Assembly: GCF_001735745.1 (NCBI RefSeq)
Contig: NZ_CP017260.1
Coordinates: forward strand, 2,490,001 to 2,522,000
Direction: 5' to 3'
Length of the DNA stretch: 32,000 bases
From: Formosa sp. Hel1_33_131
GTDB lineage: Bacteria > Bacteroidota > Bacteroidia > Flavobacteriales > Flavobacteriaceae
The position numbers and the translations under genes were made by a program. Below the pieces are notes generated by a model. The model did not search any database. It worked only from the letters and a program-made list of their open reading frames with translations, and was not told the origin of the DNA. Position 1 is the stretch's first letter. Each line of letters opens with the position of its first letter. Shown here piece after piece: positions 4,644-19,877 of this stretch.

Positions 4644-4982
4644 ATGAATCATTACGAAACTGTTTTCATCTTGAATCCCGTTTTATCTGACACACAGATA
4701 AAGGAAACAGTAAAGAAATACGAGGACTTACTCGTTTCTAAAGGAGCAAAGATGGTATCGAAAGAAGATTGGGGGCTAAAGAAATTAGCGTATCCAATCC
4801 AAAACAAAAAAAGTGGCTTTTACCACTTATTTGAATTTACAGCACCTGGAGAGGCTATTGGCCCTTTAGAAGTAGAATTTAGACGTGACGAGCGTTTTAT
4901 GCGTTATCTAACTGTTAGTTTAGATAAACATGCAATCTCATGGGCTGAAAGAAGAAGAGTTAAACTTAAAGAAAAAGCGTAA
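4644..4982 (+). CDS. rpsF: 30S ribosomal protein S6
   Basis: [16 protein letters not shown]... is the canonical S6 N-terminus. The track ORF start at 4578 adds 22 implausible residues. Confidence 0.93.
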
Positions 4983-8800: not shown

Positions 8801-8984
8801 AATTAGATCAGAATGGGGCTTAGTACAACAGCCAAACAACACGTCTCCAGTAGGAGTGAGTGTTGATCCAGCAACTTTGGTACCAACTTATACATTCAAT
8901 CCGAACCAAACCGAAACATTTGGATACGATTCTAGTTTAGCATCAAGATGGCAAATGCAATTTGGATTGCGCTATATCTTCTAG
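5859..8984 (+). CDS. TonB-dependent outer-membrane receptor with an N-terminal carboxypeptidase-regulatory-like domain
   Basis: 1041 aa. Signal peptide, then a CarboxypepD_reg-like segment (GAISDETNTGLPGANVVAVHTPTGTTYGAATNIDGRFNLVNLRVGGPYTITVSYVGY), a plug and beta-barrel, and a C-terminal beta-signal ...QFGLRYIF*. Confidence 0.88.
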   Translation: MKQISTLLMFIFTCSLSFSQVTTSSIKGAISDETNTGLPGANVVAVHTPTGTTYGAATNIDGRFNLVNLRVGGPYTITVSYVGYKDQSFTDVFLTLGKTENLTLALTLDAGQLDAVVITANTSKGVFGSDRTGAETNVGRRELTTLPTISRSASDFTRLEPTASNGSFGGRNDQFNNFSLDGAIFNNPFGLDAATPGGQTNSQPVSLDAIDQIQVSTAPYDVTQSGFTGAAVNAVTKSGSNEFKGTVYGFYRNEDMTGSKIKGQEIFVPSLTQQQTGFSIGGPIVKNKLFFFANYEQDERSDLGQAWLPNTGSGAVNESVVLESDLIAVQNALSTLGYDTGTYQGFTHESASSKGIFKLDWNVNDNNQLAIIYNWLDASQEKPAHPSALGVRGPSATTLQFQNSGYQINNKLQSVQLELNSRLSDEVSNKLQVGYTNFDDFRNPMSSAAPAITIQNGAGQNYIIAGHEPFSVNNVLNQKVFQFSNNMTISKANHTYTVGFSFEKFEFDNSFNLGAYGYGNDDGYVGAFGAFGSMGDFLAASTNGLLSEALANAQTVKNADSWALAETNVGQLAFYLQDEWDVNDNFKLTYGLRFDKPLFFDSAQKAQEVIDVSFYQPEIPYVNPNTGEVQLLDSTQMPSNDWLVSPRVGFNYDVKGDSTIQLRGGSGLFTGRFPFVWLGNQIGNPNSYFYQMVDPDYKFPQVWRTNLGLDHKYDNGLILTADVSYTKDMNGAQVQNWGLTTPSGTLAGVDNRPYYTDADKINNAYVFTNSDKGRIWNASFKAQKTFDNGLYTMLAYSYLDSKDVNSIEAEITGDAFDFNPVVGDVNSDELSYSRYGDTHRLIGVVSKKWNYGTNKKWGTTLSTFFEYSRGGRFSYTYAGNINGDTSFQNNDLLYVPTSAEIQQMQFDPTGDPGQAAAFDNYIAQDDYLSGRRGQYAERYGAQAPWRGRWDVKFLQDYKIKISENKTNTIQFSVDVLNFGNLIRSEWGLVQQPNNTSPVGVSVDPATLVPTYTFNPNQTETFGYDSSLASRWQMQFGLRYIF

Positions 8985-9007
8985 TATTAATTCAATCTTA
9001 TTTTATA
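8956..9007 (+). repeat. att-like 52-bp segment, copy 1. It is the authentic 3' end of the receptor CDS plus a 22-bp core, attaattcaatcttattttata.
   Basis: Direct copies at 11233-11284 and 16249-16300. Copy 1 differs from copies 2 and 3 at 4 positions, all left of the 22-bp core. The core is identical in all three. Confidence 0.8.
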
Positions 9008-9186
9008 TAAATGCGTCCTAATTAGGGCGCATTTTTTTTGCATAGTGTAGTGATTTGTTATGTTGTATAAGCAACTAATTTAGTAAATACAAACTAAGTT
9101 TTAAACTAAAACTAGTTTTGTAAAAGTGTCTTTTTTAGCTCAGTTCTTTGTTACCACCACACGAAAGGATTCGTGCGGTAGCGGGG
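9008..9186 (+). repeat. Repeat X, copy 1 (conserved element end; contains the terminator hairpin and ends ...cacgaaaggattcgtgcggtagcgggg)
   Basis: Aligns without gaps to 11285-11463 with 2 mismatches by eye. Confidence 0.85.
9011..9039 (+). terminator. Rho-independent terminator after the receptor gene. It lies inside repeat X and recurs at 11288-11317.
   Basis: Stem atgcgtcct, loop aatt, stem agggcgcat, followed by a T8 run. Confidence 0.7.
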
Positions 9187-9210
9187 GAAAGGATTCGTGC
9201 GGTAGCGGGG
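9164..9210 (+). repeat. Tandem duplication (24 + 23 bp) of the terminal X motif aaaggattcgtgcggtagcgggg, exactly at the X/Y junction
   Basis: Copies at 9164-9187 and 9188-9210. The same motif is single-copy in X copy 2 (11441-11463). Confidence 0.9.
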
Positions 9211-9370
9211 TAACTGATTTTAGTACAAGCATCTTGCTTGCCCCCGCATCTATAATTCAAATAAAACAATCGCTTACAACGGGTCAAGCCGCTTATGAAG
9301 ATTTAGGGTCTAAAATCTATCAGATTTATGAAATAGTTTATAAACTTTAAAAAAAAGCATCAATTAATTT
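9211..9370 (+). repeat. Repeat Y, copy a (5' 160 bp only; more diverged)
   Basis: Aligns to 10997-11163 with a 7-bp indel (gatttag) and a few mismatches. Similarity stops at about 9370, where the truncated DUF1016 ORF begins. Confidence 0.8.
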
Positions 9371-9493
9371 ACCAAGTTCGAAATTTTGTCCAATATGGTA
9401 TTTGTTGAGTGATTTATATGCATTATATTTTGCAGAATTGATTGTATCAATTACTGCTTTAAAAAAATTATTATATGCTGTTAATTCACTCAT
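9347..9493 (-). pseudogene. N-terminal remnant (48 codons) of a DUF1016/YhcG-type PDDEXK nuclease gene, cut off at the Y-repeat boundary
   Basis: My own translation: MSELTAYNNFFKAVIDTINSAKYNAYKSLNKYHIGQNFELGKLIDAFF*. The pattern A.Y.A.K..N......(Y)WE(I)GK.I is typical of the N-terminus of proteins of about 350 aa in this family. The ORF is below the track size cut-off. Confidence 0.45.
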
Positions 9494-9508
9494 TCAGTTT
9501 GTTTATTA

Positions 9509-9568
9509 TCTCTCGCACACTTGTGAGAGAAATCATAAATACAAATTCTCGCACAACTGTGCGAGAAT
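9509..9568. promoter_or_regulatory. Two related palindromes: TCTCTCGCACAC/TTGTGAGAGA (9509-9530) and ATTCTCGCACA-ac-TGTGCGAGAAT (9545-9568)
   Basis: The second has perfect 11-bp arms. The two share the core TCTCGCACA..TGTG(C)GAGA and are 14 bp apart. They lie between the 57-aa ORF and the DUF1016 remnant and could be an operator pair or a terminator pair. Confidence 0.4.
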
Positions 9569-9601
9569 TTAAACATCAGTTTTTCTTTCTTAAAAACGCG
9601 A

Positions 9602-9775
9602 TTATTTACAAATTGTAATATATGCTGTTGGCATCCACCATAGATTTACACCAAACGCAACAGTTATTATTTCATATCCGTCATTTGATTTTTTGTTAAT
9701 TAAAATTTCAACATTTCTCCTTAATGTATTTGTTGACCACATCTCACTAATTTTAATTATTTCATATTTTTTCAT
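9602..9775 (-). CDS. Small hypothetical protein (57 aa), possibly DUF4177-like; cassette-borne
   Basis: My own translation: MKKYEIIKISEMWSTNTLRRNVEILINKKSNDGYEIITVAFGVNLWWMPTAYITICK*. It starts 53 nt after the cassette boundary at 9829. Its 3' end contains ATGCCAAC (9634-9627), the complement of the cassette start GTTGGCAT. It is below the track cut-off. Confidence 0.5.
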   Translation of the reverse strand: MKKYEIIKISEMWSTNTLRRNVEILINKKSNDGYEIITVAFGVNLWWMPTAYITICK

Positions 9776-9822
9776 AAATATTTCTTTTAGTTCTTGAATT
9801 CAGGTTTCAGTTTTTTAATAAA

Positions 9823-9957
9823 TGCCAACGTGTTCGTGTATGGTTAGTTGCGTTGGCTAGCAACTAAATTAGTAAAAGAAAACGAACCAGAGGGAAATCC
9901 GCTAGGATTTTCCGAGTACACACAGAATCAGCAATTAATTATACACGTTGTTAGTGG
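9823..9957 (-). other. attC-like recombination site A (135 bp), downstream of the TIR gene
   Basis: Read on the minus strand: CCACTAAC-aa-CGTGTAT ... internal hairpins (ggaaaatcc/ggatttcc, ttagttgc/gcaactaa) ... ATACACG-aacac-GTTGGCA. This has the R''-L''...L'-R' architecture of integron attC sites. Confidence 0.5.
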
Positions 9958-10044
9958 TAGTATTAATTTCGGGTTGCTTCATTAAAACTTTCTTCAATTC
10001 GTATGTTCAATGTTAATAAATTCCTTAAAATTTTAATTATGTTT

Positions 10045-10896
10045 TTATTTTAAATTATCATCAACCAGGTCTGCAAGTTTAACGTATATTTCTTCTCGAT
10101 CATTTTCATTTAACTTGCTTAACGGGTTCTTTGGGTCATTTAGGGATTGAAATTTGCTTAAAGTTGGAGTAGAAGTAAATCTACAAGGTTTAACAATAAT
10201 TGGAATAATTCTTTTTCCTTTCTCCTCTGCTGCTTTTAATAAAGGAGGTAATTCATTGTCAACAATAAAGTCCGAAGCCAGAAAATCTGCGCTTATAAGC
10301 AGAATAGCTATAGATGCTTTATCTAAAGCCTTGTCTATCTCCATTTTCCATTGATCTCCAGCATTTATTTTGGTATCAATCCAAAGATCAATTTGACCAC
10401 TTTTAATAAAAGGTTTAAGATGTACGGTTAGTCTATCAATTGTGTTTGAGTCCTTATGACTGTAACTTATAAAAACACTTTTAGTTATATTCTTTTCTTT
10501 CTTAATGAATTTTTTTACAGCTGCTGAAGTTTTATTTTTCTTCAGATAATTATCTAATGGAATAATTAATGTTTCATCTAACCTAAGTCTATCGTAATAA
10601 ATGGAGAAATATTTTTCTAGAAATGAACTGCTTTCTGATGTTATAAGAATAATTGGTTTTTCAAAAGCTCTTGCAATTGCAAATTCGCTAGTTAAATTTC
10701 CTTCATTCTCAGACACATCAACTATCACTAAGTCTGAATTTTTTATTTCTTCTCTGACTAATTCTTCAGTTTCACCTGCGTTTAAAAGGTCTTCATGGGT
10801 GCTCAGTGTATGACCCGCTGCTACAACGACATTGTTTACTTTGCTTAAAACGTCTTGATAGCTTGAATTATACCTGAATGCTAAAAATATTTTCAT
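10045..10896 (-). CDS. TIR-domain protein with an N-terminal nucleoside 2-deoxyribosyltransferase-like/TIR-like Rossmannoid domain (candidate NADase-type defence effector)
   Basis: The C-terminal half (VFISYSHKDSNTIDRL...ILLISADFLASDFIVDNELPPLL...IIPIIV) is a bacterial TIR domain with the conserved Glu in context. The N-terminal half (MKIFLAF...DLVIVDVSENEGNLTSEFAIARAFEKPIILI) resembles the NDT motif D.GT..E.G.A...KP. Confidence 0.85.
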   Translation of the reverse strand: MKIFLAFRYNSSYQDVLSKVNNVVVAAGHTLSTHEDLLNAGETEELVREEIKNSDLVIVDVSENEGNLTSEFAIARAFEKPIILITSESSSFLEKYFSIYYDRLRLDETLIIPLDNYLKKNKTSAAVKKFIKKEKNITKSVFISYSHKDSNTIDRLTVHLKPFIKSGQIDLWIDTKINAGDQWKMEIDKALDKASIAILLISADFLASDFIVDNELPPLLKAAEEKGKRIIPIIVKPCRFTSTPTLSKFQSLNDPKNPLSKLNENDREEIYVKLADLVDDNLK

Positions 10897-10911
10897 AGTT
10901 TGTTTTTATTA

Positions 10912-10996
10912 CCACTAACTCGTTATATGTCAACAAAAGGGTGTGTTAACGGTTATATATTCCGGGATAACACAATGTTTTAGTTGTTATTATTCG
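10912..10996 (-). other. Site B: attI-like or half-attC junction site between repeat Y and the TIR cassette. It ends (minus strand) ...CATATAAcgaGTTAGTGG.
   Basis: About 70% identical by eye to site D (15932-16024). It shares the ...AAC-n2-GTTATATG end with sites A and C but lacks their other end. It contains a direct GTTATAT repeat (10922 and 10952). Confidence 0.4.
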
Positions 10997-11232
10997 TAAC
11001 TGATTTTAGTACAAGCATCTTGCTTGCCCCCGCATCTATAATTCAAATAAAACAATCGCTTACAACGGGTCAAGCTGCTTATGAAGATTTAGATTTGGGG
11101 TCTAAAATCTATCAAACTTATGAAATAGTTTATAAACTTTAAAAAAAAGTATCCATTAATTTATGTAAACAGCTGTAAATAAATCAATTTTATTAATTTA
11201 CAGTCGCATGGTTCACTTAAAACTTGAATTTT
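10997..11232 (+). repeat. Repeat Y, copy b (full length)
   Basis: 11009-11284 matches 16025-16300 at 275 of 276 positions by eye (single difference tcaagc/ttaagc). Contains hairpins caagca-tct-tgcttg and ctgtaaat...atttacag. Confidence 0.9.
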
Positions 11233-11284
11233 TGCAATTTGGATTACGGTCTATCTTCTAGCATTAATTCAATCTTATTTTATA
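11233..11284 (+). repeat. att-like 52-bp segment, copy 2 (decoy receptor 3' end ...QFGLRSIF* plus the 22-bp core)
   Basis: Identical to copy 3 (16249-16300). Flanked on the left by Y and on the right by X, the junction expected between tandem elements (equivalent to attP). Confidence 0.8.
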
Positions 11285-11463
11285 TAAATGCGTCCTAATT
11301 AGGGCGCATTTTTTTTGCATTGTGTAGTGATTTGTTATGTTGTATAAGCACCTAATTTAGTAAATACAAACTAAGTTTTAAACTAAAACTAGTTTTGTAA
11401 AAGTGTCTTTTTTAGCTCAGTTCTTTGTTACCACCACACGAAAGGATTCGTGCGGTAGCGGGG
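11285..11463 (+). repeat. Repeat X, copy 2
   Basis: See X copy 1. It ends at gcgggg (11463), directly abutting the truncated methyltransferase ORF. Confidence 0.85.
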
Positions 11464-11640
11464 ATCGCTTATTATTTCTTTACTTTTATCTTCAACCAAC
11501 ACTGGTAATTCTCTTTCGCATTGCTCAGCAATTTCTTCAGGTTTGTCTTCCCAAACTAAACCGTACCGTTTTTTCTCTAATTGCTGTAATTTGGCAATGA
11601 GTTGTTCTTTACTATAATTATCGTATTTATTCTTTGCCAT
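11428..11640 (-). pseudogene. N-terminal fragment of a DNA methyltransferase gene (type III Mod or type IIG-like), truncated at the end of repeat X
   Basis: MAKNKYDNYSKEQLIAKLQQLEKKRYGLVWEDKPEEIAEQCERELPVLVEDKSKEIISD resembles the N-termini of such methyltransferases (YGLVWEDK motif). After codon 59 the reading frame runs into repeat X (PRYRTNPFVWW*). The ATG directly follows the abiEii stop. Confidence 0.55.
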
Positions 11641-12708
11641 TTATGCTGTTTTTATTTCGTAAATCTTGAACCAATAAAAAAATGCTTCAGGATTAGATTT
11701 TTTAAGTTTGTTTAGTTTGTTGTTCATTGGTTCGTTTATTTGCCATTCTTTCATTTGTATTTGGGTGTCATACTTTTCAATTTCTGTTTTCTCATATTTT
11801 ATTAATGTGATGAGATAAGCTGTTTTAGATGCTTGAGTAATTGCTTTTTCAATATGATAACTTTCAGAAAAAATATAAGCTCGTATTCTTTGTATTCCCA
11901 ACTGTAATTCTTCGAAATTCCCTATTCCATCTATTCCTCTACTTGCAATACAAAGGGAAGTTTGGTAAATATCTTCAATTACATCTTGTTCATTACAATC
12001 ATTAATATTTCTGTATGACAATTCAGTTTTTGCAAATTGGTAAAATGTGTTTTTTATAATATTTAAGTCAATTACTTTATCAAATAAATTCCCTACATCA
12101 TATAATTGCTTTATGATTTCCATACTCATACTGTTTTCACTTTTAAAGTATGGTATTCCTGTGGTATTGGGAGCAAAGGCAGTGAGCTTGTCTCCCAAAA
12201 TATCTTCCAAACAGGGAAGGTTTACAAGTAATGGTTTGTTAATAATCGGTACAAAATTAGATTCTATAGGCAGTTGGATTATTTTTTTGTAATCCGCCTT
12301 TTCAAATAATATATCAAGTAAAATATAATCTTCTGTTTTGTTTGATTTATGAAATGGAGTGTAGTAGAATTTAAAATGTGCTTTTGTGATTTTTGAATTT
12401 GTGTTTCGGTGTTGTAATTCTTTTCGTAAAAAACCTTGCTCGGTTGCCAAAGAATCTAATATGTCGTTTAGCCCAATATCCTCTTTAGGCAAAATAATAT
12501 CAATGTCAATAGAAAGTCTTTTAGTAGAATTGAAATGTAACATTAAAGCAGTTCCTCCTTTGAATACAAAGTCCAATTTTTGTTTCACAAGACCTTCTAA
12601 TAGAATCAATGCTCGAATAACCTTTTCGACAAGAATTTTATCAGCATTTTTATTTGCTTTTGAAACCTGATTAATCCATTTTATTGATATTTCTTTTTGA
12701 TTTATCAT
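11641..12708 (-). CDS. abiEii: AbiEii/AbiGii-family nucleotidyltransferase toxin (type IV TA / abortive infection)
   Basis: 355 aa. Contains FVFKGGTALMLHFNSTKRLSIDIDIILP, the DUF1814/AbiEii NTase signature. Located immediately downstream of an AbiEi-like gene. Confidence 0.85.
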   Translation of the reverse strand: MINQKEISIKWINQVSKANKNADKILVEKVIRALILLEGLVKQKLDFVFKGGTALMLHFNSTKRLSIDIDIILPKEDIGLNDILDSLATEQGFLRKELQHRNTNSKITKAHFKFYYTPFHKSNKTEDYILLDILFEKADYKKIIQLPIESNFVPIINKPLLVNLPCLEDILGDKLTAFAPNTTGIPYFKSENSMSMEIIKQLYDVGNLFDKVIDLNIIKNTFYQFAKTELSYRNINDCNEQDVIEDIYQTSLCIASRGIDGIGNFEELQLGIQRIRAYIFSESYHIEKAITQASKTAYLITLIKYEKTEIEKYDTQIQMKEWQINEPMNNKLNKLKKSNPEAFFYWFKIYEIKTA

Positions 12709-12756
12709 AAACTATAAATTGGCAGTAAATTAATTTTGTTGCCGTAAATTAGAATT
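12709..12756. promoter_or_regulatory. Operator-like site 1: aaactataaat + core TGGCAGTAAATTAATTTTGTTGCCG + taa + attagaatt. It overlaps the abiEi stop and the abiEii start region.
   Basis: 26 nt (12719-12744) are the exact reverse complement of 13512-13537, yet the flanks aaactataaat and attagaatt are in direct orientation at both sites. Confidence 0.5.
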
Positions 12757-13434
12757 AATATATGTTTTAAGTTCTTCTTTTTTTCCTCTCCTGTTGGCAT
12801 AACGTAACAACTTACTTTTATTGATTGAGTATTTTGAAAAAGCTTCATTATAAATAGTTCTCATTTCATTACCTTGATATGCCGAAAAGATGATTTCATC
12901 ACAAAAAACATCTACTAATATTTTTTCTAAAGAAGAAGTGTTTATTCCATCTATGTTTTGTGTAGGAGCTTCAGTTATTAGTGTTTTAACAATTATTAAA
13001 TTATTGTTCTCTGTTATGTATTTTTCAAAAACATCTTTTGAAGGTTCTAAAAAGACTGAGTATTTGTTTTCTTTTAAATAAAGAAATATGGCTTGTGTTG
13101 CTTCTTTCTCAACTTCAATTAATAAATAGAATTGATTGGCTTGATGCAGGGTAAATTCATTAAGAATAGAAGAATTCCAGATGCAAGATTCTAAATATGG
13201 AAAATGTTTTTTTATTTTTTTACTTAGAATTTTTTCTTTTGAAGAAATCTCAGGAATAAAATAATTCATTGCTCCAAGAGTAAATATTCCTTTTCCAATT
13301 CGTTTAAGAACACCTTGTTTTATCAAAGTAAATACTCGCCAATTGATAGTCGTTTGACTAATATTGGGTTCAAACCCTTTAAAGAAATTAGCAATGTCAG
13401 TTGTTTCAAAGCTTTTTCGATTTTTGAAAAACAT
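12730..13434 (-). CDS. abiEi: AbiEi-family antitoxin/transcriptional regulator
   Basis: 234 aa. N-terminal winged-helix-like segment (FETTDIANFF...TINWRVFTLIKQGVLKRIGKGIFTLG) and operon partner of AbiEii. Confidence 0.8.
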   Translation of the reverse strand: MFFKNRKSFETTDIANFFKGFEPNISQTTINWRVFTLIKQGVLKRIGKGIFTLGAMNYFIPEISSKEKILSKKIKKHFPYLESCIWNSSILNEFTLHQANQFYLLIEVEKEATQAIFLYLKENKYSVFLEPSKDVFEKYITENNNLIIVKTLITEAPTQNIDGINTSSLEKILVDVFCDEIIFSAYQGNEMRTIYNEAFSKYSINKSKLLRYANRRGKKEELKTYINSNLRQQN

Positions 13435-13500
13435 TGTTAATTTTTCAATATGTAACTTGTCTTTAGCGATAGTATTTCTTTTTAACTCAGCAAATGTACA

Positions 13501-13548
13501 AAACTATAAATCGGCAACAAAATTAATTTACTGCCAATTATTAGAATT
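13501..13548. promoter_or_regulatory. Operator-like site 2 in the abiEi promoter region (same flanks, inverted core)
   Basis: See site 1. On the minus strand this site is followed by TAGTTTTG and TACATTTG, both matching the TAnnTTTG -7 consensus, upstream of the abiEi ATG. Confidence 0.5.
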
Positions 13549-13780
13549 CTGTTAGCGTGGGGAAGATTAAGCTCTTTTGGTTTTTATGTGTTGGCTTTTG
13601 TGTAGGCAAAAACCAAATGTGCTTAATGTGCGGCTGGCTTTTTTCGGTATGAAACACAACGTGTTTGTATATGGAAAGTTGCGTGTTTGCGTGCGAGGAT
13701 TTTCCGTAGGAAAATCAGACGTAGCAAACGTGCAACGACCTTTGTTTAAGCCAAAACCAGCAATTTTTTATATACAGTGT

Positions 13781-15499
13781 GCCTGTTGCACAACTATTTA
13801 TGATAAAACTACAAAATAAGTTTTAAATTTTCATAAAAATTCTTAAATTTATGGATGCAAGGAAAAAAGACCTACCAAGAAAAGCTGTTTGCTTGCTTTA
13901 GTTTGAGCGAACGGATACCAAAAGATAATTTTTATCGCCAGTTAGGAAACGTTTTAGAATTAGAATATTTGTATCGCTTGACGCGTTCTTATTATGGGAC
14001 AAGTGGACAAAAAAGCGTAGATCCCGTAGTTTTTTTCAAACTGTGTTTGGTCGGATATTTAGAAAACATCATTAGCGATCGCAAATTGATATCCCATTGC
14101 AGTATGCGTATGGATATTTTGTATTTCCTCGGCTATGACATCGATGATGAACTTCCATGGCATTCAACGATCAGTCGTACACGTCAGTTGTTTCCCGAAA
14201 GCCTGTTTGAAGAGGCCTTTACCAAAGTGTTAGAATTATGTATTTCCAAAGGCATGGTCAGCGGTCACACCCAAACCATCGACTCAGCCCCAGTAAAAGC
14301 CAATGCATCCATGGACAGTTTAGAGCTCAAAGTTCCCAAAGAAGACTTAGAAACACACTTGCATCAGCTCCGTCATATCAGCCGAATGGATAAGCCCCAT
14401 CGTCAAGCCAAAGACAATAAAGCCCCTAAAACCCAACAAACCCTTAGTGCCAATAAGCAAGAACTAGGCGCAATAAAGAGTCGCAACAAGAAATGGTCAA
14501 ACGACCAAGACCAGCGACCCGGTGCAGGGAACAAAGGCAGTAAATACACCAGTAATAAGACCCATTACAGTCCCACCGACCCCGATGCCCGAATCAGTGT
14601 AAAACCAGGCAAAGCCAGAAAGCTCAATTATATGAGTCAACTTAGTGTGGACACCGCCCATCATGTCATCACCGACATCCAAGCCTACCATGCCGATAAG
14701 AAAGACAATCAATACTTGCAAGATATCGTAAAACGATTAGACAAGCGTTTATGGAAACAAGGATTACTATGGCAAAACTGTGTCGCCGACACAGGATATA
14801 GCAGTGGCGAGAACTATGCCTTTTTAGAAGGCGTCAACAAACAAAGTTTCATTCCTCCGCATGGCACCTACAAAGGTGGTCCCGAGGGATTTGTTTACCA
14901 TAAAAAAGAGGATCATTACGTATGTCCACAAGGGGAAGTGATTCCCTTCAAAAAAGTATTTAACGATTATAGAACCCACACGAGAAAGAAAGAATACCGC
15001 GGTTCGACCAAACAATGCAAAGGCTGTCCAATAGCACTCCAATGCTTGGGGAAAACAGCCAAAGAAAAGAAGTTTTCAGTGACCTATTACCGAGAGGAAT
15101 ATGAGCGAAACAATGCCCGAGTGCACAGCAAACAAGGACGCTTTATGAAACGCAAACGTCAAAGCACCGTAGAACCTGTTTTTGGAACACTCACTCAGTT
15201 TATGGGCCTGAGAAAGATCAACACCCTTGGCATACAACAAGCCAACAAAGTCATGCACTTATCTGCGATGGCTTACAACCTGAAAAAGTATCTAAAATTC
15301 ACTCAGAAACTGGCAAGAAGTGAGGCGAAATCACTTGGGGTTGTTTTTTTAGAAATAACCCTCTTTATAAAGGTGTTTTGGTCTTGTGTAAGCCCCTCAA
15401 AAAAACAAAATAGCACACTCATTTTTTAATAATACATCCTGTAAATCGGCTTAAAAAGGAAGGTTTTTTACTTTTTTAGAGGGCTTGTGCAACGGTTAC
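13781..15499 (+). mobile_element. IS1182-family insertion sequence (about 1.72 kb)
   Basis: A single transposase ORF. Imperfect terminal inverted repeats centred on GTTGCACAA (13786-13794; reverse complement at 15486-15494). Flanking 6-bp direct repeat CAGTGT (13775-13780 and 15500-15505). Confidence 0.75.
13855..15429 (+). CDS. IS1182-family (IS5-like DDE) transposase
   Basis: 524 aa. N-terminal DUF772-type domain (SVDPVVFFKLCLVGYLENIISDRKLISHCSMRMDILYFLGYDIDDELPWHSTISRTR) and a C-terminal DDE region (CVADTGYSSGENY...VEPVFGTLTQFMGLRKINTLG). Confidence 0.88.
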   Translation: MQGKKTYQEKLFACFSLSERIPKDNFYRQLGNVLELEYLYRLTRSYYGTSGQKSVDPVVFFKLCLVGYLENIISDRKLISHCSMRMDILYFLGYDIDDELPWHSTISRTRQLFPESLFEEAFTKVLELCISKGMVSGHTQTIDSAPVKANASMDSLELKVPKEDLETHLHQLRHISRMDKPHRQAKDNKAPKTQQTLSANKQELGAIKSRNKKWSNDQDQRPGAGNKGSKYTSNKTHYSPTDPDARISVKPGKARKLNYMSQLSVDTAHHVITDIQAYHADKKDNQYLQDIVKRLDKRLWKQGLLWQNCVADTGYSSGENYAFLEGVNKQSFIPPHGTYKGGPEGFVYHKKEDHYVCPQGEVIPFKKVFNDYRTHTRKKEYRGSTKQCKGCPIALQCLGKTAKEKKFSVTYYREEYERNNARVHSKQGRFMKRKRQSTVEPVFGTLTQFMGLRKINTLGIQQANKVMHLSAMAYNLKKYLKFTQKLARSEAKSLGVVFLEITLFIKVFWSCVSPSKKQNSTLIF

Positions 15500-15520
15500 C
15501 AGTGTTGGCAATAGTATTTT

Positions 15521-15892
15521 TTATTCAGTTAGATTTTCCGTTATAGATTTCAGAGTTTCAATTTTCGGCATTTCTGTAATTTCAGATTCTCCATCTATTG
15601 AGTAAAATTCCAATTCAGTCGGCATTTGGTCAGTTCCGAATACAGATATTCCAATTAATTCTCCGTTTTTACCTTTTCCATCGTAATCTATTATTAAATT
15701 CCCTTTTTGAATTTCCGAGTCAAATGTTTTTCCAAATATTATAGTCGGACATTTTCCGCAACCACATCTCGCAATAACTTTCAGATTTCCGATTAAATTA
15801 GTCCACTCCGATTTTTCTTTTCCAAACAGATAAGTCAGAAATTCAATTTCGGATTTTGTCAATGCTCTTTTATCTGGAATGCTATATTTCAT
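15521..15892 (-). CDS. Hypothetical cassette protein (123 aa) with a CGCGKC motif
   Basis: An intact ORF that is the only coding sequence in a cassette of about 554 bp (excluding IS and TSD) bounded by sites D and C. I do not recognise the family. Confidence 0.6.
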   Translation of the reverse strand: MKYSIPDKRALTKSEIEFLTYLFGKEKSEWTNLIGNLKVIARCGCGKCPTIIFGKTFDSEIQKGNLIIDYDGKGKNGELIGISVFGTDQMPTELEFYSIDGESEITEMPKIETLKSITENLTE

Positions 15893-15931
15893 TAATCAAA
15901 TTGTTCATTTTTTTACGTTCCGTTGATATTA

Positions 15932-16024
15932 TTGCCAACTGGTTATATGGAGAACAAACCTCCTGTTTATACGTCTCTATTTCCGGATAATAGGAACTTT
16001 TGGTTTCTTTATCCAAAATCAAAT
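15932..16024 (-). other. Site D: attI-like or half-attC junction site between repeat Y and the 123-aa cassette. It ends (minus strand) ...CCATATAAccaGTTGGCAA.
   Basis: Homologous to site B. Contains GTTATATG (15942-15949) and GTTTATAC (15965-15972). Confidence 0.4.
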
Positions 16025-16248
16025 GTACAAGCATCTTGCTTGCCCCCGCATCTATAATTCAAATAAAACAATCGCTTACAACGGGTTAAGCTGCTTATGA
16101 AGATTTAGATTTGGGGTCTAAAATCTATCAAACTTATGAAATAGTTTATAAACTTTAAAAAAAAGTATCCATTAATTTATGTAAACAGCTGTAAATAAAT
16201 CAATTTTATTAATTTACAGTCGCATGGTTCACTTAAAACTTGAATTTT
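16025..16248 (+). repeat. Repeat Y, copy c
   Basis: Together with the att segment that follows, it matches copy b at 275 of 276 positions. It lacks the first 12 nt of Y (taactgatttta). Confidence 0.9.
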
Positions 16249-16300
16249 TGCAATTTGGATTACGGTCTATCTTCTAGCATTAATTCAATCTTATTTTATA
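16249..16300 (+). repeat. att-like 52-bp segment, copy 3 (attR-like); followed by unique chromosomal sequence aatttgcacactgcaaatagg
   Basis: Identical to copy 2. Homology to X is absent to its right. Confidence 0.8.
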
Positions 16301-16348
16301 AATTTGCACACTGCAAATAGGACACATTTTTTTTAACTATAATCAAGG

Positions 16349-16819
16349 ATGAAATACACAAGACTTACCAAAGAACAGTTGGAGGAATTAAACCAAGAGT
16401 TTATTAATTTTTTAGCAACGCAATCCATCACGGCAGATGAATGGAAAGAGATCAAGGAACAGAAGCCCGAAGTGGCAGAAGAGGAATTGGATATTTTTAG
16501 CGACTTGGTTTGGGAAGGCGTGTTGTCAAAAGTGGAGTATCTAGAAAATATAGCGCCGCAGCACATGTATCTGTTTAAAGTGGATGCATCGCAGTTGCGA
16601 TTGATTGGACTCAAAATAAAAAAAGAGGACATTGATTTGACCACCAAAGAAGGGTTTGGGTGGTTAAGAGAAAATTTGATGTCCGACGAGGTCGAATTGT
16701 TCAATGCCGATAAAACGCTTGAAGCCGATAAAAACACAAAAATATTTGAACTTATCGTGCAAGGGTCTAACATCACAAAAGGCGATCTTTATAAGTATTT
16801 AGAAGATCTAATTGGATAG
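16349..16819 (+). CDS. Conserved hypothetical protein (acidic, 156 aa; possibly the Bacteroidota DUF6495 family)
   Basis: Long intact ORF upstream of hisS on the same strand. The antisense ORF 16333-16776 is Ser-rich and of low complexity, so it is judged spurious. Confidence 0.65.
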   Translation: MKYTRLTKEQLEELNQEFINFLATQSITADEWKEIKEQKPEVAEEELDIFSDLVWEGVLSKVEYLENIAPQHMYLFKVDASQLRLIGLKIKKEDIDLTTKEGFGWLRENLMSDEVELFNADKTLEADKNTKIFELIVQGSNITKGDLYKYLEDLIG

Positions 16820-18285: not shown

Positions 18286-18477
18286 ATGACCACAATTACG
18301 ATTGAAAACGGCAAAGATCTTCCCCAAAAAACATTTAGCAATTGGGAAGAACTGCGAAATATATTGAATTTTATGGCGCTTCAGTTTAAGCAAACTAAAG
18401 AATCTTCTACCATACCCGAAAATCTAAAAGAGAAACCATTATCAGCTTTCAACTACCTGACTGATGAAAGTTTATGA
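18286..18477 (+). CDS. Putative antitoxin of TA-like module 1 (63 aa)
   Basis: Starts MTTITIENGKDLP. Upstream partner, overlapping the next ORF by 14 nt. Paralogous to 18786-18977 and 19274-19474. Confidence 0.55.
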   Translation: MTTITIENGKDLPQKTFSNWEELRNILNFMALQFKQTKESSTIPENLKEKPLSAFNYLTDESL

Positions 18478-18700
18478 AACTGACACAGCAGTTGCCTATT
18501 TAAAAAAGAGAGAACTCATTAAACCGTATCTCAAAGCCAAACAATACTTTGAGCAAGGACATACTCGAATGGTTAAGCTAAAACTATTACAACCTAAGAA
18601 AAATAAAGAATACCAATTTAGGATAAACGATAAATATCGTGCTCGTGGTTTTTACAAAGAAAACGGTTTTTTGGTCACTGAAATATCCGACCATCAGTAA
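18464..18700 (+). CDS. Putative RelE/ParE/HigB-superfamily-like toxin of module 1 (78 aa)
   Basis: ...YQFRINDKYRARGFYKENGFLVTEISDHQ* resembles the HigB/ParE-like C-terminal pattern (RIN..YR..F.......V.I.DH). The family assignment is tentative. Confidence 0.5.
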   Translation: MKVYETDTAVAYLKKRELIKPYLKAKQYFEQGHTRMVKLKLLQPKKNKEYQFRINDKYRARGFYKENGFLVTEISDHQ

Positions 18701-18785
18701 AACTTCAAGAGATATTCCCCCACCCAAACAAAAATTTGCACAAAAACCCTCTTTTCCATATATTTAACTGTTAATAATAAAAAAA

Positions 18786-18977
18786 ATGACGACAATTACT
18801 ATCAAAGACGGACAAAAATTACCAAAAACTGAGTTTGGAACAATCAAAGATTTTCTAGAATGGGCTGTTGATCATTTTCAAGAAGAAATACCTTTGTCAG
18901 AAAAAACTATCAAGAAAGCAGCAAAAGCCAAGAAAGAAATTTCATCGCCAAACTCAACTTTTAAACCGGCATTATAA
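18786..18977 (+). CDS. Putative antitoxin of TA-like module 2 (63 aa)
   Basis: Starts MTTITIKDGQKLP. Its stop overlaps the next start as TAATG. Confidence 0.55.
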   Translation: MTTITIKDGQKLPKTEFGTIKDFLEWAVDHFQEEIPLSEKTIKKAAKAKKEISSPNSTFKPAL

Positions 18978-19213
18978 TGCTCGTGTTTGATAATGAAAAT
19001 GCTCGAAAAGATTTACAAAAATTTCAATTAACCAAGCAATACAAAAAAGCTTGTGATTATATTCGTGATGACCAATATTATAAGGTTCAATTAAAACTGC
19101 GGAAACCGAAATCAAAAGGTATTTACCAGTTTAGAATTTATAAAAAATACCGTGCCTTTGCTATCAAAAAAGAACAAACTTTATTTGTTTTTGAAATCTT
19201 CGACCATCAGTAA
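18977..19213 (+). CDS. Putative RelE/ParE-like toxin of module 2 (78 aa)
   Basis: ...YQFRIYKKYRAFAIKKEQTLFVFEIFDHQ*, paralogous to 18464-18700. Confidence 0.5.
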   Translation: MLVFDNENARKDLQKFQLTKQYKKACDYIRDDQYYKVQLKLRKPKSKGIYQFRIYKKYRAFAIKKEQTLFVFEIFDHQ

Positions 19214-19787: not shown

Positions 19788-19803
19788 CTTTGATTATCTA
19801 GTA

Positions 19804-19877
19804 GCGAGAGCGGGGCACGATCCCGCGACCTCCGGGTTATGAATCCGACGCTCTAACCAGCTGAGCTACCTCGCCAT
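19804..19877 (-). tRNA. tRNA with a CAT anticodon (Met, or Ile2 if lysidine-modified); 74 nt, no encoded CCA
   Basis: Minus strand: GGCGAGG-TA-GCTCAGCTGGTTAGAGC-G-TCGGA-TTCATAA-CCCGG-AGGTC-GCGGG-ATCGTGC-CCCGC-TCTCGCT-A. This folds as a cloverleaf. The acceptor stem has G1.U72 and G7.U66. Confidence 0.85.

Follow-up and report, generated by a model that had tools for sequence, protein, structure and literature searches.

Probable integron-like cassette arrays without a recombinase gene between a receptor gene and DUF6495 in Formosa sp. Hel1_33_131

The analysis concerned a stretch of 32,000 nt from Formosa sp. Hel1_33_131 (contig NZ_CP017260.1, positions 2,490,001 to 2,522,000), hereafter the window, in which repeated sequences and accessory genes lie between a TonB-dependent receptor gene and a DUF6495 gene. 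The interval 9008-16248 probably consists of two tandem integron-like cassette arrays and a rearranged third stub, all on the minus strand of the receptor–DUF6495 spacer and none with a recombinase gene. An original prediction, made from the sequence alone, had described simple integrative elements bounded by two repeated sequences, X and Y. What was found instead is an attI-like site with a recombinase remnant in Y, hairpin sites at the cassettes and, in X, a terminal site. In minus-strand order, array 2 runs from Y224 through the attI-like site and cassettes 2.1 and 2.2 to X (Table 1). Array 1 runs from Y224 through a diverged attI-like site, the TIR cassette and a cassette with a 57-aa open reading frame (ORF) to a distal part, in which a partial Y fused to a duplicated X end, read as the remnant of a third array, is followed by X. 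The cassettes apparently belong to a family that is run by an Xer-like enzyme and not by a classical integron integrase, is widespread in marine Flavobacteriaceae and is new to the literature. The predicted defence-type cargo was recovered as TIR/ThsB-like, AbiEi/AbiEii and methyltransferase-remnant sequences; the nuclease remnant and the truncated gene at 9370 found no confirmation.

The sites that separate the cassettes were analyzed in the window and in related loci, which are given L numbers. Cassettes were parsed by motif pairing plus complementarity. Each starts with GTT-N6 and ends in a hairpin site of 107-441 nt, whose first box (R''), directly after the ORF, is the reverse complement of the first 10-12 nt of the same cassette. 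Complementary pairs of this kind are GTTAGGCACA and TGTGCCTAAC in L099, and GTTAGTGGTA and TACCACTAAC in the TIR cassette of the window. After R'' come about 3 nt, the L'' box (GT[A/G]TATA), variable hairpins and the L' box ([C/T]CATA[C/T]AC); roughly 6 nt separate L' from the GTT that opens the following cassette.

Pairing by motif alone gave a mean match of 4.05 over the six free positions, compared with 1.89 +/- 0.10 in permutations; the distribution was bimodal, and 58 of 132 cassettes matched at all six. Across 67 complete cassettes (sites with a median of 143 nt; cassette length 196-6767 nt), R'' matched its own start at 5.85 of six positions and the start of the next cassette at 2.33, and minimum-energy folds paired R'' with its own start in 64. 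The box and the start that it complements lie 0.2-6.8 kb apart. In 23 trimmed sites 96% of cells were paired (22-41% in slid controls), 15 of 23 pairs showed compensatory changes and the covariation score was 0.607 against 0.150 in shuffles, in a set pre-selected for R-box complementarity and fold geometry, which inflates helix 1. The two best sites of the window gave folding z-scores of -3.8 to -5.2.

A metagenome pattern scan for TTTGTTNNNCATATAACNAGTT returned at least 120 loci. Among the matches listed, about 90 carried an element of about 80 nt that is 80-97% identical to window 15936-16024, and almost none carried the remainder of Y, the 52-bp repeat described below, X or the receptor gene. 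Past the GTT the DNA is unrelated between loci, with a start codon (ATG) usually 11-35 nt on; such short leaders suggest that most cassettes are promoterless. Different first cassettes meet the conserved element at the identical nucleotide, which is consistent with a role as insertion site. In L099, L187 and L122 the element forms the end of a tyrosine recombinase gene (387-389 aa) that runs in the direction of the cassettes; the final ~20 codons of this gene, with its stop codon, fall within the element. Close homologues of the recombinase occur in cultured Polaribacter. In Polaribacter sp. Hel1_33_78 (LT629794.1) and P. gangjinensis (CP150662.1) the gene overlaps the element in the same way, and arrays on the same strand, with restriction and other defence genes among their cargo, lie behind it.

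The family recombinase carries SAM_4 and Phage_integrase domains and falls just under the cut-offs of both the XerA and the integron integrase profiles; TIGR02249 (integron integrase) gave 208.7 bits against a cut-off of 265, with the match in two stretches. Its alignment with XerA is gapless, and the IntI-specific region (58 residues, 185-243, in IntI4) is reduced to about 15 residues. No close relative was found on plasmids, where matches occurred only at 40% identity or less. The same recombinase protein in the same chromosomal context is accompanied by entirely different arrays in L211 versus L212 and in L215-L219; a MerT cassette holds the first position in L217, the second in L219 and one farther down the array in L216. 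Both observations speak for activity in nature. In at least one Polaribacter the system adjoins a lexA-like/imuB/dnaE2 cluster: in Polaribacter sp. Hel1_33_78 and a related contig (L211 4907-11164, L212 452-6709) the recombinase gene directly follows, and is collinear with, genes for a lexA-like repressor (helix-turn-helix and Peptidase_S24 domains), imuB and dnaE2. By analogy with integron integrases, this neighbourhood suggests SOS-coupled expression of the recombinase. A recombinase of another type, a small serine recombinase with a Resolvase domain, was seen beside an array in L093 (4350-4979), about 0.8 kb upstream of one attI-like element.

Variation within the species was assessed in ten contigs from one metagenome set (L001-L010), retrieved by exact look-up of the DUF6495 protein. 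All ten showed the order receptor–repeat–X ... Y–repeat–DUF6495 with one or two units each, in agreement with the prediction of units bounded by direct repeats of the target and polymorphic in presence. Since the same architecture recurs in ten independent contigs, the repeats are not a chance feature. The genes within the units are all on the minus strand and differ in a modular fashion. Unit 2 combines a constant X, methyltransferase fragment and AbiE with an AbiE-to-Y interval that is either empty or occupied by the 123-aa ORF, a short-chain dehydrogenase, a Pnkp/Hen1 set or a WG-repeat protein; unit 1 consists of X, a 400-aa protein, a variable segment and Y.

In L001-L010 and in the sister species L012, the junction of every variable segment with Y is fixed to one nucleotide, ...YAAC/T-N-GTTATATGG on the plus strand (the slash marks the junction) or ...TTTGTTCTCCATATAAC-N-A/GTT-N6... 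on the minus strand. The AbiE cassette start GTTGTGTTTC stands directly after attI in five variants (L001, L004, L006, L007, L008), and after the 3' end of an inserted cassette (...CATA[CT]AC-N4-6/GTT) in the window, L005, L009 and L010. At least five different first cassettes are joined to the identical attI at the same nucleotide, each with its own complete site. Cargo is exchanged cassette by cassette at the attI junction, and not as the X-cargo-Y block that had been proposed.

The receptor protein matches one of an uncultured Formosa at 96% identity and one of Formosa sp. Hel1_33_131 at 90%. The order receptor gene–DUF6495–hisS was found across about 80 Flavobacteriaceae species, with a receptor–DUF6495 gap of 55-157 bp in most. 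The site is empty in sister Formosa species (L011, L014, L084, L013, L024, L074; gap 74-76 bp), which show the predicted arrangement of stop codon and 22-bp core, and after it an intact terminator and DUF6495; in the closest of them ATTAATTCAATCTTATTTTATA stands between the stop codon and the terminator. Comparison with these sister species supports an insertion into an ancestrally empty spacer; a further sister species, L012, holds a single unit.

The comparison reproduced the coordinates and counts originally given for the 52-bp segment, which occurs in direct orientation at 8956-9007, 11233-11284 and 16249-16300. Its rightmost 22 bp are invariant in all three copies, copies 2 and 3 are identical, and copy 1 differs from them at four positions, all to the left of the 22-bp block. 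The length was underestimated: the true repeat spans about 87 bp and runs from the final 29 nt and stop codon of the receptor gene through the 22-bp block to a copy of the receptor terminator hairpin (9008-9039 and 11285-11316, each the first 32 bp of an X copy; 16301-16334, decayed). X occurs twice, at 9008-9186 and 11285-11463 (97-99% identity), and Y three times, as predicted: at 10996-11232 and 16025-16248 (99% identity) and, partially, at 9210-9371 (93% identity, 6-bp deletion). A 24-bp tandem duplication links 9163-9186 and 9187-9210. In most copies the Y homology runs about 88 bp farther inward than had been drawn (15936-16024; diverged version 10920-10995).

X is a decayed terminal site together with a conserved array-end motif. 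Its R'' box (GGTGGTAAC) matches the cassette start of L002, and in at least eight other loci the motif (AAAGAACTGAGCTAAAAAA...) stands directly after a cassette-specific R'' box where the array ends, which implies a second precise junction type, at the AAC of R'', unforeseen by the simple integron model. Occurrences of the motif (AAAGAACTGAGCTAAAAAAC...) include window 9126-9149 and 11403-11426, L099 8640, L103 5423, L109 1485, L154 1037, L174 1689 and L192 4875. A portion of Y224 of about 110 nt (…GACCCCAAATCTAAATCTTCATAAGCAGCTTAACCCGTTGTAAGCGATTG…GCAAGCAAGATGCTTGTA) is conserved beside recombinase-less attI sites of other lineages and chromosomal contexts (window 16025-16248 and 10996-11232; L143 10668-10840; L095 11750-11840; L130; L159; L192). 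The Y224 of the window had no Rfam match, and its origin as a leftover of the recombinase gene body was ruled out by tblastn and blastn, neither of which found any similarity to the recombinase. A viral origin of Y was rejected as well, an exact 22-mer from Y being absent from the viral contigs searched.

Each array opens at the attI-like site at the inner end of Y, the site that related bacteria with an intact platform have in overlap with the 3' end of the recombinase gene, continues with promoterless or self-promoted cassettes and closes with the decayed terminal site and array-end motif in X. This anatomy is shown by the data, as are the pairing with its covariation, the precise junctions, the polymorphism in the population and the link between attI and the recombinase. 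The R''-L''...L'-R' site, with R'' pairing to its own start, would be the signature of excision as a circle and re-insertion; the excised TIR cassette circle, for example, would join ...CCATACACGAACAC to GTTAGTGGTAAT. A family recombinase from elsewhere in the genome would excise cassettes and insert them at the attI junction (...CATATAAC-NA/GTT...), and this would generate the cassette-level polymorphism of the population. The prediction that the interval holds no recombinase gene apart from the IS (insertion sequence) transposase held, and the absence extends to the whole 32-kb window; cassette turnover would therefore have to occur in trans. The DNA strand used, the exact cleavage point and the arrival of the first array at the locus are likewise presumed.

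Whole arrays would be duplicated or lost when the target repeats (~87 bp) or the Y-repeat-X junctions (~500 bp) recombine with one another. Homologous recombination or gene conversion is the probable process at this level, since some repeat copies are mosaics that switch outside the 22-bp block: L001 and L009 have such a mosaic as middle copy and L002 as left copy, with switch points that fall within 30 bp to the left of the block. These mosaics contradict the crossover confined to the 22-bp block that had been suggested. On a broader scale, we lean towards the view that Polaribacter, Formosa and their relatives carry an overlooked integron lineage, in which an Xer-type recombinase without the IntI domain takes up and shuffles cassettes via long folded hairpins, recombinase-less attI platforms, the two of the window among them, are satellites served in trans, and the system is common in bloom populations and stocks defence genes.

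Several observations weigh against the integron-like reading, in addition to the pre-selection of the 23 folded sites. The arrays of the window are damaged: an IS interrupts one attC, the AbiE cassette has no site, the terminal site is degenerate and cassette 1.2 is rearranged, so that this copy may have lost part of its activity. The recombinase has no IntI-specific domain, considered necessary for the recognition of folded attC sites; the hairpins could instead serve in double-stranded or cruciform form, or another enzyme could act on them. The search for a family recombinase covered the 32-kb window and found none (best tblastn E-value 0.15); supply in trans is therefore inferred. Two junctions are irregular: in L216 (~11170-11200) ATTAAC... 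follows attI instead of NA/GTT, and in L003 (island position 4791) the AbiE cassette start is shifted, with GTTACATACC in place of GTTGTGTTTCATACC. Both look like off-register or secondary-site events.

One alternative is that the arrays are relics, built when a recombinase gene was still attached, and that present variation arises only by homologous recombination with the arrays of other strains, using the conserved Y, AbiE and X flanks. The shared recombinase remnant in all Formosa variants and in L012, the decay visible in the window copy and the placement of the variable cassette always between two conserved segments long enough for homologous exchange are in its favour. However, the five or more first cassettes at the same attI nucleotide, each with a complete site, must have been inserted at a remnant-type attI at some time, and the conservation of this attI at 80-97% across many lineages, without its flanks, argues for continued selection on the site. 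We regard the relic scenario as doubtful, although a real possibility. The view that the ~80-nt element and the hairpins are regulatory or structural motifs (leader, terminators, repetitive extragenic palindromic-like repeats) common to unrelated genes in an ordinary flexible island is far less credible still. The hairpins do lie at gene 3' ends, where terminators are expected, and the element lies just upstream of start codons. Nevertheless, no Rfam family was matched (nothing at the gathering threshold in the window, and only two chance-level matches at E<=1 in 8900-16400), homology breaks at single-nucleotide precision and the element is the coding 3' end of a recombinase gene in intact loci. 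No terminator or leader model predicts a 10-12-nt box complementary to the start of its own cassette and not to that of the neighbour, and this complementarity largely refutes the regulatory view. For the same reason, together with the hairpin geometry, 28-bp dif/pdif-like sites and IS200/IS605-type ends at the junctions were dropped as candidates.

The units could also be integrase-less elements similar to cis-mobilizable elements (CIMEs), having entered serially by site-specific integration at a 22-bp attB core under a trans-acting integrase that recognises the receptor 3' end. Direct target repeats flank the units, sister species retain empty sites, whole units are present or absent in the population, and the Y-side repeat copies retain ancestral-like bases, as in an attP from another host. 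The middle copy of the window joins the left side of copy 3 cleanly to the right side of copy 1, a hybrid structure that would be expected from both site-specific integration and unequal homologous exchange, and the latter accounts equally well for the tandem units. Yet the crossover points in L001, L009 and L002 vary and lie outside the 22-bp block, the block has no GTT/AAC box of the type used by the cassette recombinase, and no integrase is tied to Y, the repeat or X among the approximately 120 related loci in the matches listed. Other arrays with a Y-like leader follow the terminators of other genes without detectable target duplication; likewise, no flanking direct repeats were found around intact Polaribacter or other arrays in the DNA examined. 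Since this model also leaves the cassette-level structure wholly unexplained, we consider it unlikely. The viral, metagenome and genome loci examined contained no autonomous element that combines Y, the repeat and X. A tRNA target was rejected: the sole tRNA of the window, tRNA-Met at 19801-19875, lies outside the island.

The integron-like arrays share much with integrons. Their cassettes are co-oriented and apparently mostly promoterless, with new ones at the recombinase-proximal junction, and each ends in an imperfect palindrome that has AAC...GTT boxes on the outside, L boxes inside, a spacer that stays unpaired and a terminal structure that varies. The outer box is complementary to the 5' end of its own cassette. 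As in integrons, near-identical strains differ in their arrays, and arrays without an integrase are more numerous than complete ones; defence and toxin-antitoxin genes form part of the cargo (compare 10.1101/2024.07.02.601686). In contrast to integrons, the family recombinase has no IntI-specific additional domain (208.7 versus 265 bits) and an extra N-terminal region of ~95 aa, and its gene is collinear with the cassettes, with attI overlapping its last codons. Here the R boxes pair over 10-12 bp, of which six positions are free, the sites are long, at a median of 143 nt, an array-end motif follows a cassette-specific R'' box, and the hosts are Flavobacteriaceae, in a phylum reported to be almost devoid of integrons.

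Measured against the definition of a complete integron, neither the window nor the family recombinase provides an IntI with the additional domain next to the array. Sites of attC type are present in the window (9830-9961, and 13661-13778 with 15501-15515), as judged by boxes and complementarity and not by the standard attC covariance model, and a putative attI lies beside the recombinase gene in related loci. As an integrase-less cluster of at least two attC sites, the island holds within 7.3 kb one complete, one IS-split, two degenerate terminal and one partial site, all of a non-canonical family, and no recombinase. In the integrons of Treponema and relatives, the integrase gene is oriented as the cassettes and the array is chromosomal and sedentary; their integrases are canonical IntI proteins that have the additional domain, and the standard model describes their attC sites. 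The family described here is like them in the shared direction of transcription of recombinase gene and cassettes and in its chromosomal sedentary arrays, and unlike them in its non-canonical recombinase and sites.

CIME arrays and the tycheposon arrays of marine cyanobacteria (10.1101/2020.12.28.424599) were also compared. They resemble the Formosa island in having tandem recombinase-less units split by target 3'-end repeats, in forming a hypervariable island of an abundant marine bacterium and in their proposed mobilisation in trans. The target here is the 3' end and terminator of a protein-coding gene, the receptor, and not a tRNA 3' end, and the window has no tyrosine recombinase, of tycheposon type or other. 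The units are cassette arrays with their own attI and attC sites, and their mosaic repeats, with differing crossover positions in L001, L002 and L009 instead of a short core, point to homologous and not site-specific exchange of units. Modules of the pdif type lie between inverted 28-bp sites for XerC/XerD and depend on the XerCD of the host. They share with the present family an Xer-type tyrosine recombinase and discrete gene modules that include toxin-antitoxin genes; the junctions here are instead directly oriented hairpin sites of 107-441 nt with cassette-specific boxes, beside a dedicated recombinase and attI.

To our knowledge, Bacteroidota are held to be nearly free of integrons, and the ability of an integrase to read folded attC sites is ascribed to the IntI-specific domain. 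IntegronFinder 2.0 recorded only one complete integron in Bacteroidetes, that of Salinibacter ruber, together with In0 elements. A full-text literature search, which did not extend to subscription-only papers, where a prior description is possible, found no account of the cassette system. Our results point to a system with the logic of integrons and an Xer-like enzyme that is abundant in the flavobacteria dominating the degradation of algal blooms. If so, the range of integron-type gene capture would be widened, hairpin-site recognition without the IntI domain would have a natural experiment, and part of the strain-level variability in defence genes, surface proteins and metal resistance would be accounted for. 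Standard integron finders probably miss the whole family. What looked in the window like two orphan integrative elements can now be read as a structure whose parts are defined at nucleotide level.

Table 1. Parts of the receptor–DUF6495 island in the window (window coordinates; a slash marks a junction).
Feature	Position	Strand	Details
Repeat copy 1, joined to intact receptor gene	8956-9039	+	final 29 nt and stop codon; 22-bp block 8986-9007; terminator 9008-9039
X copy 1, end of array 1	9040-9186	-	degenerate attC 3' half (TTTACTAAATTAGTTGCTTATACAACATAAC); array-end motif 9126-9149; R'' box GGTGGTAAC 9150-9160; last 37 nt of lost cassette
Duplicated X end and partial Y	9187-9371	-	24-bp duplicate 9187-9210; Y 9210-9371 (alternative type) without attI and core-proximal ~70 nt
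Cassette 1.2	9372-9829	-	start GTTGGCATTT at 9829; 57-aa ORF 9602-9775; R''-like box GGATGCCAAC ~9630-9639; attC truncated or rearranged, two hairpins
Cassette 1.1	9830-10919	-	start GTTAGTGGTAAT at 10919; TIR/ThsB-like ORF 10045-10896
Complete attC of cassette 1.1	9830-9961	-	R'' ACTACCACTAAC; L'' GTGTATAA; L' CCATACAC; spacer GAACAC
Diverged attI-like site	10920-10995	-	recombinase 3'-end remnant (...LSRNI, stop); junction ...TTTGTTGACATATAACGA/GTT
Y224 copy b	10996-11232	-	conserved platform sequence
Repeat copy 2	11233-11316	+	pseudo 3' end of receptor; 22-bp block; terminator copy
X copy 2, end of array 2	11317-11463	-	array-end motif 11403-11426; R'' box 11427-11437
Cassette 2.2	11464-13660	-	start GTTGTGTTTC at 13660; AbiEi 12730-13434; AbiEii 11641-12708; 70-aa methyltransferase N-terminal fragment 11428-11640; 3' end truncated, without own attC
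Cassette 2.1	13661-15939	-	start GTTGGCAATAAT at 15939; 123-aa ORF 15521-15892
attC of cassette 2.1	R'' box 15504-15515; 3' part 13661-13778	-	split by IS
Insertion sequence	13779-15500	+	524-aa DDE transposase 13855-15429 (DDE_Tnp_1_6 / DUF772)
attI-like site	15940-16024	-	overlaps recombinase remnant, last ~20 codons (KFLLSGNRDV, stop; frameshift); junction ...TTTGTTCTCCATATAACCA/GTT
Y224 copy c	16025-16248	-	
Repeat copy 3	16249-16334	+	pseudo 3' end of receptor; 22-bp block; decayed terminator 16301-16334
DUF6495	16349-16819		after repeat copy 3

The IS sits exactly in the unpaired spacer of the cassette 2.1 attC, flanked by a 3-bp duplication (AGT, plus strand) at 13776-13778 and 15501-15503. 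In L009 a related IS, 81% identical, occupies the same place. Many unrelated cassettes share a leader, ...AAGCCAGCCGCACA...CACATTTGGTTTTTGCC, just past the GTT start (window 13570-13650; L098, L101, L132, L142, L203, L210 and others), which may be a cassette-borne promoter or operator typical of AbiE-like modules. Outside the island, a pair of small ORFs (63 aa and 78 aa) occurs twice in tandem at 18286-19213, between hisS and tRNA-Met, and is kept in all population contigs.

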